Shown piece by piece: positions 17,308-23,423 of a DNA stretch of 64,000 bases. The stretch lies in contig CAWIIQ010000003.1 of assembly GCA_963836185.1 (NCBI GenBank), positions 64,001 to 128,000 on the forward strand. The letters are read 5' to 3'. This DNA comes from Candidatus Krumholzibacteriia bacterium (GTDB lineage Bacteria > Krumholzibacteriota > Krumholzibacteriia > Krumholzibacteriales > Krumholzibacteriaceae). The translations under genes and the position numbers were made by a program. The first letter of the stretch is position 1. Each line of letters starts with the position of its first letter. The notes under the pieces are model-generated. The model made no database searches and was not told the origin of the DNA. It saw only the letters and a program-made list of their open reading frames with translations.

Positions 17308-18429
17308 GTGAATCGCATGATCATTGGCGTTCCCAAGGAAATAAAGAAGGACGAGCACCGAGTCTCCCTGCTCCCCGTCGGAGCGGAAATACTCACCAAG
17401 AAGAAGCATACCGTTCTCGTAGAGAAGGGCGCGGGCCTCGGCAGCGGGATCAGCGACTCCGAGTACCGGGCCGCGGGCGCGCGGATTCTCCGCTCCGCCG
17501 ACGAGATCTGGAAAAAGGCCGACATGATCATCAAGGTCAAGGAGCCTCAGCCGATCGAGATCAAGAGATCGCGCAAAGAGCAGATCATCTTCACATACTT
17601 CCATTACGCGGCGAACAAGCCCCTCACGCTGGGCATGCTCAAGAGCGGCGCGATCTGCATCGCTTACGAGACGATGGTCGGAGCCGACGGCACCCTTCCC
17701 CTGCTTACACCGATGAGCGAGGTCGCCGGCCGCATGGCGATCCAGGAAGGCGCCAAGTATCTCGAGAAGCCGATGGGCGGACTCGGGATCCTTCTCGGCG
17801 GCGTCCCCGGTGTCGATCCGGCGCACGTTACGATCATCGGCGGCGGAGTCGTCGGAACGCACGCCGCGAAGATGGCCGCCGGCCTCGGCGCCAACGTGAC
17901 GATCCTCGACATCGACCTCGAGCGTCTGCGCTACCTCGCCGACGTTCTTCCCGCCAACGTTACGACGCTCATGTCGAACCCGGCGAACATCCGCTCCGAG
18001 ATCGGCAAGGCCGACCTCGTGGTCGGCGCGGTCCTGATCCCCGGCGCGAAGGCTCCGAAGCTGATCACCCGCAGGATGCTCAAGCTCATGAAGCCGGGTT
18101 CCGTTATCGTCGACGTCGCTGTCGACCAGGGCGGCTGCATCGAGACGATCGTACCGACAACGCATTCGAAGCCGATCTACGAAGTAGACGGAGTCATACA
18201 TTACGCCGTGGCAAACATGCCCGGAGCGGTCTCGCGCACATCGACCTACGCGCTGACCAACGCGACCTTCCCCTACGCCCTCGAGATCGCCAACAAGGGC
18301 TGGGTCAGGGCCGCCAAGAACGACCCGACGATCTGGACGGGCATCAACACGCTCCGCGGAGTGATCACCGACGCGGCAGTGGCAAAAGCCTTCAAGATGA
18401 AGTACACGCCGCTCAAAGACGTGATATAA
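17308..18429 (+). CDS. ald: Alanine dehydrogenase
   Basis: [44 protein letters not shown]. Confidence 0.95.
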
Positions 18430-18463: not shown

Positions 18464-18494
18464 GAGACCCCCGGTGCAACGCCGGGGGTCTTTT
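18464..18494 (+). terminator. Intrinsic terminator of ald
   Basis: GAGACCCCCGG-tgcaacg-CCGGGGGTCTTTT. Confidence 0.75.
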
Positions 18495-18502
18495 CGAATA
18501 TT

Positions 18503-18533
18503 AAAGAAGCCCCCGGACGAAGGCCGGGGGCTT
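18503..18533 (-). terminator. Intrinsic terminator of the putative ncRNA
   Basis: Minus strand AAGCCCCCGG-ccttcgt-CCGGGGGCTT followed by CTTT. Confidence 0.6.
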
Positions 18534-18699
18534 AATGATCTTCGGCAGATTTTGTGGGTGCAGGGCACCGCCTTACGGCATGCCTTATGCGCCGCCGAAT
18601 CTCAATGTCACGACGCCGGACGGCAGCGTTCACTGCCACAATTCACCACACTCGCCACTGCCGGGGTCGATCGACCGGGAACCTTTCGGCTCCGAAGTC
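18503..18699 (-). ncRNA. Putative ~200-nt structured non-coding RNA (family not recognised)
   Basis: Bounded by a near-consensus sigma70 promoter and a terminator; several helices with GAAA/GTAA tetraloops; no credible ORF. Confidence 0.55.
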
Positions 18700-18704
18700 G
18701 AAGC

Positions 18705-18733
18705 AAGATAATGAAAGGCCCGGTCCGTGTCAA
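18705..18733 (-). promoter_or_regulatory. Sigma70 promoter overlapping the pdxJ terminator
   Basis: TTGACA (18733-18728), 17 nt, TATCTT (18710-18705). Confidence 0.6.
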
Positions 18734-18750
18734 CACGGCCGGGCCTTTTT
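18714..18750 (-). terminator. Terminator downstream of pdxJ
   Basis: AAAGGCCCGGtCCGTGT-caac-ACGGCCGGGCCTTTTT inverted repeat. Confidence 0.7.
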
Positions 18751-18774
18751 AATGATTATTTATTATTTTCCCGT

Positions 18775-19495
18775 CTACCTGACCATCAGAGATACCATCT
18801 CACTTACCGCCTGTTCGATCCCTGAGAAGACAGCCCTCGAGATTATGCTGTGCCCGATGTTAAGTTCCTCGATCTCCGGTATCATCACGATCGGGTGGAC
18901 GTTGTGATAAGTGAGCCCGTGGCCGGCGTGCACATGAAGCCTGTATTTCACTCCTGCGTTCGCCGCGTCCTGTACCGCGCGCAGCGTATCGCCGGGATCC
19001 CGCCTCGACGCGTTAGCGTACTCACCGGTGTGGATCTCGATCGCGTCGAATCCGAGCTTCGCCGCCGCCTTGATCTGCGTCCGGATCGGGACCGATGAAC
19101 GCCGCCGTCTTGATCCCGCCGTCCTTGAGGGCCTTCACCGTCGCTGCGTATTTCTCGCTCTCCCTGAGCAGGTTGAGCCCCCCCTCTGTCGTGACCTCTT
19201 CGCGTTTCTCCGGCACGAGGGTCACGGAGTCGGGGTTCATCGCCAGCGCGATCTCCTGCATCGCCAGGGTAGCGGCCATCTCGAGATTGACCCTGGTCTG
19301 CGCCATCTCGCAGATCAGCCTCGCGTCGCGGTTCTGGATGTGCCGCCGGTCCTCTCTGAGGTGAAAGGTCACCTGGTCGGCCCCTCCCATCTCGGCGAGC
19401 ATCGCCGCGGTGACCGGATCGGGCTCGGTAGTCTTCCTCGCCTCTCTCAGGGTCGCGACATGGTCGATATTGACTCCAAGCCTCATCCTGTTCAT
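18775..19495 (-). CDS. pdxJ: Pyridoxine 5'-phosphate synthase (frameshift near 19080)
   Basis: LGVNIDHVATLR, HLREDRRHI, NLEMA, LVPEKREEVTTEGG. After the shift: IEIHTG, HAGHGL, ELNIGHSIISRA; stop TAG at 18775. Confidence 0.93.
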
Positions 19496-20813: not shown

Positions 20814-21369
20814 TCACATGGCGATATCGTAGACGGCCCTGACGGCCCACTTCTCCGGATCGCTCTCGTCAGGGGCGACGACGATCGTCACCAGGGAAGT
20901 CGATGGAGAGCTCGCGTAGACGGTCCCGTCCCGGCTGAACTGCACGCGGATGTAATACTGCCTCGTCGTCTCGCGGCAGCCTTCGCAGGGCCCGCCGGCG
21001 ATCTCATCGCGGTCCGACCAGGCGCCGCTGGTGGAGATGCTCAGCTCGAGCTCGAACTGCCTTTCGAATATCAGCGGCCGTAACATCGATATCCTCGCTC
21101 CTCGTTATGACCGGGCCCTCCCCGGGGCCGACATCATCGGGGGCGAGGTAGAAGAAATACTCCGAGTGAAGGATGCTTTCATATCTTGCCATGGCATCTT
21201 CGTCGGAGGGATTCTTGTAGCACCAGAGGATGGCCCTGACGGCGTCGTCTTCGCTCGTCATCCCGGGCCAGGTCGAGGGCGGCGCTTCCTTTATCGGCTT
21301 TACCGCATCGTCGAGGCACGATGGGAGCACGGCGAGCATCGCCAGTATGATCAGGCTCTTTCGGAACAT
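20814..21369 (-). CDS. Lipoprotein of the tandem paralog family (copy 1; frameshift near 21080)
   Basis: MFRKSLIILAMLAVLPSC lipobox-like; YESILHSEYFF, PCEGC, VAPDESDPEKWAVRAVYD. Confidence 0.75.
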
Positions 21370-21379
21370 TTTCCCCTCC

Positions 21380-21943
21380 TTATATACCGAGGTCGTAGAT
21401 CGCTCGAAGGACCCACTTCGACGGGTCGCTCTCGTCGGGCGCGACGATAAAGACTGCAAAGGCCCTGCCGGGAGGGCTCTGATAGATCGTCGTCTCATCC
21501 CCGATCTGAACCCTTATAAAATACTGCCTCTCCGTTCCCCAGCAGTTCGCGCAGGGCTCTCCCCCGATCTCCGGGTACTCATACCACGATCCCTCTTCGG
21601 GGGTGATGGTAAGATCCAGAATGGTCGAGTTCGAGAACATGAATTCTGTGGACGCTATATCCTCCGCCCTTGCCATGAACGGCGGGTCGCCCGGCTGGAC
21701 ATCTGTGGCGTCAAGCCCGAAGAAGTACTGAGAGTGGAGCACGGCGTTGTACTTCGATAATGATTCCCCATACTTCGGGTTGTTGTGCGCAAGAACGACA
21801 GTCTTTATGACATCGTCCCGGCTCGTCATGGCCGGCCAGGTGAGATCGTCGTCGTCCTTTACCGGGTCTGTCGGATCGTCGCCGCACGACACCACAAGGA
21901 AAAGCGCGGCGGCCAGTATCATCACAAGTGTCTTTTTACTCAA
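21380..21943 (-). CDS. Lipoprotein of the tandem paralog family (copy 2)
   Basis: TTG start after GGAGG; LVVSC lipobox; YNAVLHSQYFF, PCANCW, VAPDESDPSKWVLRAIYDLGI. Confidence 0.8.
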   Translation of the reverse strand: MSKKTLVMILAAALFLVVSCGDDPTDPVKDDDDLTWPAMTSRDDVIKTVVLAHNNPKYGESLSKYNAVLHSQYFFGLDATDVQPGDPPFMARAEDIASTEFMFSNSTILDLTITPEEGSWYEYPEIGGEPCANCWGTERQYFIRVQIGDETTIYQSPPGRAFAVFIVAPDESDPSKWVLRAIYDLGI

Positions 21944-21982
21944 AATCGCCCCTCCATCTGACAGGTGATATCTGACCCGCAT

Positions 21983-22011
21983 ATTATAACAGAGGTCCGG
22001 CGCGATTTCAA
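21983..22011 (-). promoter_or_regulatory. Sigma70 promoter for lipoprotein copies 2 and 1
   Basis: TTGAAA, 17 nt, TG-n-TATAAT. Confidence 0.7.
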
Positions 22012-22055
22012 TGGACCGCGCCGGACCCGGGCAAGACCGGAATCATTCCGGGCAC

Positions 22056-22623
22056 TCAATCATCGTCTACATCGTACATCGCCCTGATGACGAACCGATC
22101 GGGGAAGTCGGGGTCCGGAACCGCTACTATCACCACGACATCGTTACCCCTGTGTATCCTGCCGCCATCGCCGAAACTGGGCGATTATCAGGTAATTCCT
22201 CGTCGTTGTGAAACAGCCCTCGCACGGCAGCCCTTCGAAATCGCAGAGGGCGTACCATACGCCGGGAGAGATATCGAGCAGAAGGATCGTGGCGCTCGCG
22301 AATATCTTTCCCGTGACCGCGATATCCTCTTCCCTGTCGAGATAGGGGCGCTTGCCAGGCTCTACATCCTGCGGCTGGAAGTGCCACCTGTAATCGGGAT
22401 GAAGCACGCCGGCGTACTTCGATATCGCATCGGGATCCGTGAAATCTTCGTAGCAATCACGTATCGCGCCGATACACCCCTCGGGATCGACCATCAGGGC
22501 GGCGTCGGAAAGCGTTCCCGCGGGGCCGACCGGATGATCGCCAGGCGCGCAACCCGCGACGGCGATGATGATGGTGAGGATGATGATAATGGCTGCTGCA
22601 GGCGGGTAACTCCTGTGACCCAT
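22056..22623 (-). CDS. Lipoprotein of the tandem paralog family (copy 3, divergent; frameshift near 22172)
   Basis: VAGC lipobox; YAGVLHPDYRW, PCEGCF; after the shift VAVPDPDFPDRFVIRAMYDVDDD, stop at 22056. Confidence 0.75.
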
Positions 22624-22687
22624 GATCCTCCCCCCTTACCGTATGCCGCTCGAAAGAGGGTCCAGGGGGGGGCGGTTCCACACTTTT

Positions 22688-22716
22688 AATATAGGGCCGC
22701 GCGGAGCGAAGCGCAA
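22688..22716 (-). promoter_or_regulatory. Putative sigma70 promoter for lipoprotein copy 3
   Basis: TTGCGC, 17 nt, TATATT. Confidence 0.5.
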
Positions 22717-22736
22717 ACAGGGGACAGAGCGGGCAC

Positions 22737-22766
22737 AAAAAAGCCCCCTGCATGGCAGGGGGCTTC
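22737..22766 (-). terminator. Intrinsic terminator after lipoprotein copy 4
   Basis: AAGCCCCCTGC-cat-GCAGGGGGCTT followed by a T-tract on the minus strand. Confidence 0.75.
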
Positions 22767-22789
22767 AGTCTGCTTATTCATTCGATACG

Positions 22790-23374
22790 TCAGATGCCGA
22801 GATCGTACATCGCCCTGAGGACCCACTTGGTCGGATCGGACTCGTCCGGCGCTACGATGACTACGGCAAAGGCCCTTCCGGGAGGGCTCTGCAGGACGTT
22901 CTCCTCGTCCCCGCGCTGGGCCCTGATAAAGTACTGCCTCTCCGTTCCCCAGCAGTTCTCGCAGGGTTGCCCCTCGATCTCCGGATACTCATACCACGAT
23001 CCCTCTTCGGGAGTGATGGTGAGCTCGAGCAGGGTCCAGGTAGGACTGAAGAGATACTCCGTGGACTCTATATCCTGCGCCCTCGTCATGATCGACGGGT
23101 CGCCAGGATCGACATCCGCGGCGGCAAGCCCGAAAAAGTACTCGGTATGGAGAAGGCCGTTGTATTTCGACGTAGCCGCTCCATCCGTACGGTTCTCGTA
23201 TGCGAGGACGACAGTCTTTATGACATCGTCCCGGCTCGTCATATCGGGCCAGACGACCTCCTTGTCCGGCGGGATGACTGGATCTTCCTTCGGATCGAAG
23301 ATACATGCCGGAGACATCAGGAGGGCCGTGATAAGCAACAGGGGTAGGGCTGTTTTGAATACAATACTACGCAT
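22790..23374 (-). CDS. Lipoprotein of the tandem paralog family (copy 4)
   Basis: MRSIVFKTALPLLLITALLMSPAC; YNGLLHTEYFF, PCENCW, VAPDESDPTKWVLRAMYDLGI. Confidence 0.8.
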   Translation of the reverse strand: MRSIVFKTALPLLLITALLMSPACIFDPKEDPVIPPDKEVVWPDMTSRDDVIKTVVLAYENRTDGAATSKYNGLLHTEYFFGLAAADVDPGDPSIMTRAQDIESTEYLFSPTWTLLELTITPEEGSWYEYPEIEGQPCENCWGTERQYFIRAQRGDEENVLQSPPGRAFAVVIVAPDESDPTKWVLRAMYDLGI

Positions 23375-23394
23375 ATGCATACCTCCAGTTGTAA

Positions 23395-23423
23395 ATACTA
23401 GCACATTCCGGCCGCGGATGCAA
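23395..23423 (-). promoter_or_regulatory. Putative sigma70 promoter for lipoprotein copy 4
   Basis: TTGCAT, 17 nt, TG-n-TAGTAT. Confidence 0.5.

Follow-up and report, generated by a model that had tools for sequence, protein, structure and literature searches.

The gap between the convergent genes ald and pdxJ in a genome of Candidatus Krumholzibacteriota appears to hold a new structured RNA, and the best reading of the analysis is that this RNA is trans-acting, dispensable, uncatalogued, restricted to one genus and outside every RNA family tested. That a non-coding RNA of some kind is transcribed from this site is very probable. We moderately favour the fuller description of a stand-alone ncRNA gene of ~200 nt with its own sigma-70-type promoter, three domains, probably a pseudoknot, and a function exerted in trans through its shape. 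The initial annotation of this window (the whole 64,000-nt stretch of DNA analysed, to which all bare coordinates refer) had proposed an independently transcribed structured RNA, a proposal that is upheld by a promoter conserved only together with the RNA, a constrained core, the maintenance of its helices and the absence of a corresponding Rfam family.

The ald stop codon ends at 18429 and the pdxJ TAG lies at 18775, leaving an intergenic gap of 345 bp; these coordinates and the Pfam matches of the two neighbours (AlaDh for ald, alanine dehydrogenase, 17308-18429, plus strand; PdxJ for pdxJ, 18775-19495, minus strand) agree with the convergent arrangement first described. In the present assembly pdxJ is split by a frameshift within 18775-19495, its reading frame is intact in all six congeners, and several further open reading frames between 12000 and 25000 also appear frameshifted, so that these are probably assembly indels. 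Further along the minus strand, the interval 21004-23404 contains about four tandem related genes of ~200 amino acids with lipoprotein-like N-termini, the one scanned having no Pfam match. The three terminator-type hairpins noted in the gap are all strong by folding energy (-28.2, -20.4 and -27.3 kcal/mol) and by z-score (-7.2, -3.7 and -6.5). Hairpin 3 (18465-18495) has a TTTT tail on the plus strand and is the likely ald terminator, similar single hairpins being present in outgroup pdxJ-ald gaps as well. Hairpin 2 (18502-18533, minus strand) carries a U-rich tail and is the predicted constitutive terminator of the RNA, and hairpin 1 (18714-18748), with T runs on both strands, is the likely pdxJ terminator. 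Of these, the terminator scan picked up two, each on the minus strand, and missed hairpin 1, which carries the -35 box.

On the minus strand, TTGACA (18733-18728) is followed after 17 nt by TATCTT (18710-18705), as had been noticed initially, and no other promoter-like site occurs in 801 bp (shuffle mean 0.4). The -35 hexamer had been placed inside the loop of the pdxJ terminator, which holds for its TTGA, the whole of the loop, and fails for its CA, which sits in the stem. The -35 box is preceded by a tract rich in A and T (18746-18770, minus strand) that may represent an UP element. Both hexamers and their spacing are intact at all five RNA-bearing loci. In genome G005, by contrast, where the RNA has been lost and the stem of hairpin 1 is kept as the sole hairpin of the gap, the hexamers have decayed to ATGACG and CATCCT, and the sequence from the predicted transcription start through both later hairpins is missing, the gap opening at that start. 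As a separate observation, the -35 box lies within a near-palindrome, CGTGTTGACACG (18724-18735), that is kept in four genomes and might also serve as an operator; allowing one mismatch, the rest of the genome offers no similar context.

By the usual promoter spacing, a sigma-70-type promoter is predicted to drive the RNA from a start near 18699, and constitutive termination at hairpin 2 (18533-18502), before ald is reached, would yield a transcript of ~200 nt. The minus strand was chosen on account of the promoter, the terminator tail, the G-U pairs and the GNRA loops, as folding energy alone is indecisive: the folding z-score with the terminator is -3.55 on the minus strand versus -3.56 on the plus strand, and without the terminator it is modest (-0.3 to -2.8), with the plus strand equal or better in all five sequences. 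The earlier statement that G-U pairs favour the minus strand stands, and folding energy adds no preference of its own. One RNA-library run (X16) yielded a 163-nt contig, flanked on either side by adapter-like sequence, that aligns to 18552-18666 and therefore falls inside the predicted transcript; as it is unstranded, has a depth of 3.6, may be DNA and comes from a relative, it gives a mere hint of expression. Across the sequencing runs, the share of the element's words was 0.12 at most, too small to point to a habitat or to give weight to the missing cover of the flanking genes in X16.

The ~162-nt core (18539-18700, minus strand) and its terminator are full-length in four of seven genomes of one Ca. 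Krumholzibacteriota genus, always at the same pdxJ-ald site. These copies (G000, G001, G002 and G004) score 173-194 bits and all adjoin ald, as does a further full copy on a metagenome contig (L085, 164 bits). The other three genomes lack it through three different gaps: besides the one in G005, only the 3' end and the terminator are left in G003, fused behind the pdxJ stop, and just the two later hairpins are kept in G006. A search for a relocated copy in these three genomes found none, and two remnants of the G003 type were recovered from metagenomes. In a survey that covered 30 loci from among 40 genomes with a match, 8 of the 24 loci belonging to other genera also had ald after pdxJ, with a short gap that lacks the element. 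The ald tree places the genus in one clade (100/100) in which the remnant-bearing G003 branches first (fork support 82/96), and the simplest inference is that the RNA was gained in the ancestor of the genus and then lost three separate times. As it is missing or broken in three of seven genomes, the RNA is not essential.

Wider searches agree with this narrow distribution. Among 43 genomes of the family, strong matches were confined to the genus, and among 151 genomes of the class, two matches outside the genus at 24 bits and three at 18-21 bits looked chance-like in alignment. A 16-mer occurs exactly in 5 of 208 genomes of the phylum, all belonging to the genus, and at one mismatch in six other genomes, compared with eight matches for the reversed control. 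Distant homologs were possibly missed, since the family, class and phylum searches scored only 19-68 candidates per genome. A scan of all species returned 15 loci with three full-length copies, L022 among them, which were not counted as new because their scores are identical to those of model members. The metagenome scan (37 of 64 parts) covered 118 of an estimated ~210 loci, all by nhmmer and nine by a covariance model, and gave one new full copy, two remnants and seven SRP-like loci, one of the seven being confirmed by Rfam and the others of the 118 being unrelated. Viral scans returned 0, 0, 1, 8, 66 and 14 loci with a best score of at most 13.3 bits, and BLAST against phage and plasmid sequences gave one and two short matches, respectively, and no homolog. 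No description of such an RNA was found among the papers listed for Krumholzibacteri; supplementary motif catalogues might include it.

The core is under constraint, as judged by comparison with the neighbouring gene. Invariant columns number 110 of 166 in the core versus 98 of 189 at the four-fold degenerate sites of ald (Fisher p 0.004), and RNA identity exceeds four-fold identity in all six genome pairs. Domain 3 is the most conserved part (52 of 64 columns, p 2e-5), and the domain-2 loop shares in the excess (11 of 12, p 0.006); the conservation of the linker (3 of 10) and of the domain-2 stems is not above that of four-fold sites.

RNAalifold on four sequences gave three side-by-side hairpin domains on the minus strand. 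Domain 1 (18678-18693) is a 5' hairpin with a GNRA loop (GAAA, replaced by GUAA or GCGA in relatives), and domain 2 (18611-18669) is a long interrupted stem with a 24-nt loop. Domain 3 (18541-18599) consists of a UUCGGCGG/CYGCCGAA stem with internal loops, a GNRA-capped tip and a CACCCACAAA bulge. A predicted pseudoknot would lock these domains by pairing GUG-n-GGUG (18644-18651) with the invariant CACCCAC (18554-18560); its 5' strand varies only at the bulged base, and since nothing else in it changes, the pseudoknot is predicted and not proven. When the three-domain fold with the pseudoknot is applied to five sequences, 95% of 220 cells are paired, 14 of the cells being kept as G-U, and three pairs, all in domain 2, show double changes. 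Homologs at the same site are conserved, with helices kept through G-U pairs and double changes. Covariation is thin because only five full sequences are available, two of them near-identical, and there is no variation in the pseudoknot pairs or in most of domain 3 on which covariation could be judged. The covariation score of the fold was attained by 5 of 500 shuffles, a type of score that kinship inflates, and three of five whole-structure measures were unexceptional against shuffles (32, 123 and 428 of 500, with 32 also for double-change cells). Three low-depth contig variants (the X2 and X3 contig being identical and counted once) carry seven listed changes in the inner domain-2 helix, all of which, read by hand, preserve pairing, one variant creating a new A-U pair there; the outer domain-2 helix of X4 was unjudged owing to indels. 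Energetically, the three-domain fold costs 0.5-5.3 kcal/mol over the free minimum in all five sequences.

Several elements of the structure drawn by eye in the initial annotation reappear in this fold and are kept in relatives, namely the GGAGCC-GAAA-GGUUCC hairpin, the GUAA-capped hairpin, the GUGUGGUG/CACCCAC complementarity and the two GNRA tetraloops, both of which remain GNRA throughout. Its remaining helices fared less well. Pairing holds in 77% of cells for the proposed closing helix CGGCAG/CUGCCG and in 60% for the GUGGCAGU-GAAC-GCUGCCGU hairpin, neither of which shows double changes, and the multiway-junction fold as a whole is 86% paired with no double change and lies 17-33 kcal/mol over the minimum in the sequences of four relatives.

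With respect to known families, Rfam gave no gathering-level match in the window. At E<=10, a search with 601 bp gave 24 matches, none of which reaches gathering and most of which lie on the terminator hairpins, and the core alone gave two weak matches; the RNA matches no family and is thus uncatalogued. That the initial annotation did not recognise it as tRNA, tmRNA, RNase P or SRP RNA agrees with the lack of a family match and by the presence of the RNase P, tmRNA and large SRP genes elsewhere in the genome; a tRNA-SeC gene lies at G000:C1:1400422-1400519. 6S RNA resembles the element in outline, being ~190 nt long with its own promoter and terminator and trans-acting by shape, and it binds the sigma-70 holoenzyme and templates pRNA. 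The suggestion of a divergent 6S RNA was not borne out: a canonical 6S gene is located at C1:1727883-1728068, the RNA has no match to RF00013, and its 5' and 3' ends do not pair to give a 6S-like rod with a bubble at its centre, the 5'-3' duplex reaching -8.9 to -14.9 kcal/mol compared with -27.1 kcal/mol for the genome's own 6S RNA. Membership among bacterial Y RNAs was also rejected, Ro60 (TROVE) being found in none of five genomes (two carriers among them; G000 and G002 left out), as was a CsrB/RsmZ-type sponge, a class with many loop GGA motifs, given that the core has one GGA, situated in a stem.

A close general resemblance is to raiA/ModT RNA (RF03072), which is alike in size and which, according to PMC10861870, is single-copy, independently transcribed, pseudoknotted and rich in invariant bases, and has no expression platform; PMC11706538 describes it as acting in trans. 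The two also share the 11-mer GGCGAGUGUGG, and in each of them its GUGG portion finds a CCAC to pair with; by our estimate, chance alone would produce a shared 11-mer with one or another known family. In contrast to the three side-by-side domains of the present RNA, which has no end-to-end P1, the ends of raiA are closed in P1 with a P3/P4/PK1/PK2 core (PMC12968392), and raiA is widespread whereas the present RNA is restricted to one genus. Single-sequence raiA scores were rare among random windows (0 to 0.45%) for three of four copies, the G002 copy reaching 14%. Membership in raiA was rejected, as the architecture differs and no match was obtained with RF03072 or with a profile of 24 sequences (seven loci from unpublished genomes left out), straight or doubled, where the positive control L188 scored 143.5 bits. 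A search of the 151 class genomes did not find raiA, and the positive control gave no signal in that search. Separately, raiA RNA was observed in 98 of 101 genomes of the G162 class (L218-L247), nine unpublished genomes included.

Function can be approached through the position and conservation of the RNA. The RNA stops short of ald and is followed by no gene on its own strand; the most conserved bases are in paired or pseudoknotted segments, and both GNRA loops are kept. On these grounds the RNA would act in trans by its shape, with a protein or the ribosome as its most likely binding partner. A specific form of this explanation, which we regard as unlikely, is that domain 3 derives from a copied 5' (Alu) domain of SRP RNA through gain of a GNRA hairpin and loss of the helix-4 3' strand, and that the RNA mimics Alu at the ribosome on its own. 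The SRP Alu domain docks at the factor-binding site of the ribosome, and it is conceivable, at a similarly low probability, that a second RNA was spun off it, one whose Alu strand refolded with new partners, a distant loop providing helix 4, and which slows or parks ribosomes. The segment 18552-18571 (minus strand) matches 19 of 20 nt of the Alu domain of the genome's own SRP RNA (helix 3 3' strand, connector and helix 4 5' strand), encoded elsewhere at L012:1501-1765 (G000:C1:2207642-2207906). A global alignment is colinear from the 5' strand to the 3' strand of helix 2, with GGC/GCC in the same register, and only 1, 13, 8 and 32 of 20,000 random genome 73-mers score equally well. According to PMC4231752, a UGU-type connector joins helices 3 and 4; the corresponding CCCUGCACCC is present and invariant in the RNA, as in the SRP RNAs of the genus, and is predicted to be partly paired there. 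A UGC connector is common to the RNA and five SRP RNAs of the genus, and among all 29 SRP rows it takes the place of UGU in 11. The family has the large SRP RNA with its Alu domain, observed in 36 of 43 genomes.

Several observations count against the Alu likeness. Aligning domain 3 with the 5' region of SRP Alu requires a 13-nt insertion and an 11-nt deletion, and gap costs and boundaries were set after the match had been seen. Genome-wide, the SRP ranks are 9, 55, 182 and 77, with a sum rank of 14 among 23,354 bins that include the self match, and the five higher-ranking matches inspected are in or at open reading frames. Allowing for ~40 bins of structured RNA (an estimate) and for gap costs chosen afterwards, p is ~0.02 at best. 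The SRP profile gives at most 5.3 bits over only 17-20 nt, and model R1 does not match SRP. Unlike the Alu domain, in which hairpin helices 3 and 4 are joined by a loop-loop pseudoknot, the RNA has no hairpin helix 4, its 3' strand being absent and replaceable in its role only by the distant domain-2 loop; helix 1 is likewise lacking, as is the S domain of large SRP RNA (RF01854) with its Ffh-binding helix and GGAA loop. The likeness of domain 3 to Alu, marginal genome-wide, is suggestive and not established.

The remaining alternatives to a shape-based trans-acting RNA appear less probable. A base-pairing regulatory sRNA with the conserved domain-2 loop as its seed seems quite unlikely, even though a gene for a predicted secreted protease (G000:C1, minus strand, ~1899021) has in its 5' leader, between a -10-like box and AGGAGG, an exact 13-nt complement of the loop (15 nt when extended). 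The target site has two uncompensated mismatches in G004, where RNA and ortholog are both present, C/T-rich leaders also occur in relatives without the RNA, the protease gene was not found in G001 or G002, and the loop is predicted to be engaged in the pseudoknot. The predicted secreted protein encoded at L259:1876-2982 (G000:C1) has Nal1_C and weak trypsin-like matches and is present in 27 of 43 family genomes, often with paralogs. Antisense control by T-box and S-box elements provides a precedent for a riboswitch-like leader whose terminator governs an antisense transcript into ald, and here a promoter, a structured RNA and a terminator are directed toward ald, with a weak minus-strand tail on hairpin 3. 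This arrangement is highly unlikely to be regulatory in that sense: the terminator does not overlap the core and forms with a pairing probability of at least 0.997 in all five sequences, blocking it would cost 18-23 kcal/mol, and, as long as its 3' arm has not yet been transcribed, upstream pairing of its 5' arm amounts to 0.13 to 0.70 with no shared partner. Moreover, a second hairpin follows the terminator, no Rfam riboswitch matches, and a same-strand downstream gene is lacking.

Confinement to one genus and loss through three different gaps would also suit an RNA orphaned from a mobile or defence system (of the guide, bridge or retron type) that decays without host function. This origin is slightly less probable again, given that the RNA is single-copy, stays at one fixed site, lacks a variable guide segment, is constrained above the level of four-fold sites and has no homolog in collections of phage, plasmid or viral sequences. 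With G000 excluded, a TnpB/Cas12f domain was found in none of five genomes, reverse transcriptase in one of three carriers and one of two non-carriers, and IS110 in one of three carriers and both non-carriers, so that neither of the latter two tracks with the RNA. Least probable, and very improbable in itself, is an mRNA for a short arginine-rich peptide with its ribosome-binding site hidden by the pseudoknot. The initial annotation had seen no open reading frame with a ribosome-binding site, which does not hold strictly, as an invariant GGUGA is followed after 9 nt by an invariant GUG in all five sequences, opening 33 codons here, and CACC, the partner of GGUGA, is similar to the anti-SD end of 16S rRNA in this genome. 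The frame is not conserved as a gene: there is no third-position bias (7, 7 and 6 changes by codon position), the frames diverge after codon 21, G004 is frameshifted after codon 10, and the lengths are 33, 30, 30, 21 and 70 codons.

A trans-acting RNA that works by its shape would join a small group, as large structured bacterial RNAs without an assigned function are few, and some of them, such as raiA, proved to be abundant and physiologically important. Its narrow range and dispensability limit its importance, short of a demonstrated connection with Alu or a demonstrated partner. The RNA offers a fold that is absent from the catalogues, comes from a phylum that has received little study and is of a size that suits probing and cryo-EM, together with natural loss variants in which gene and promoter decay together. 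If the Alu derivation were true, it would constitute a bacterial counterpart of mammalian SRP-derived RNAs, acting independently of protein targeting.
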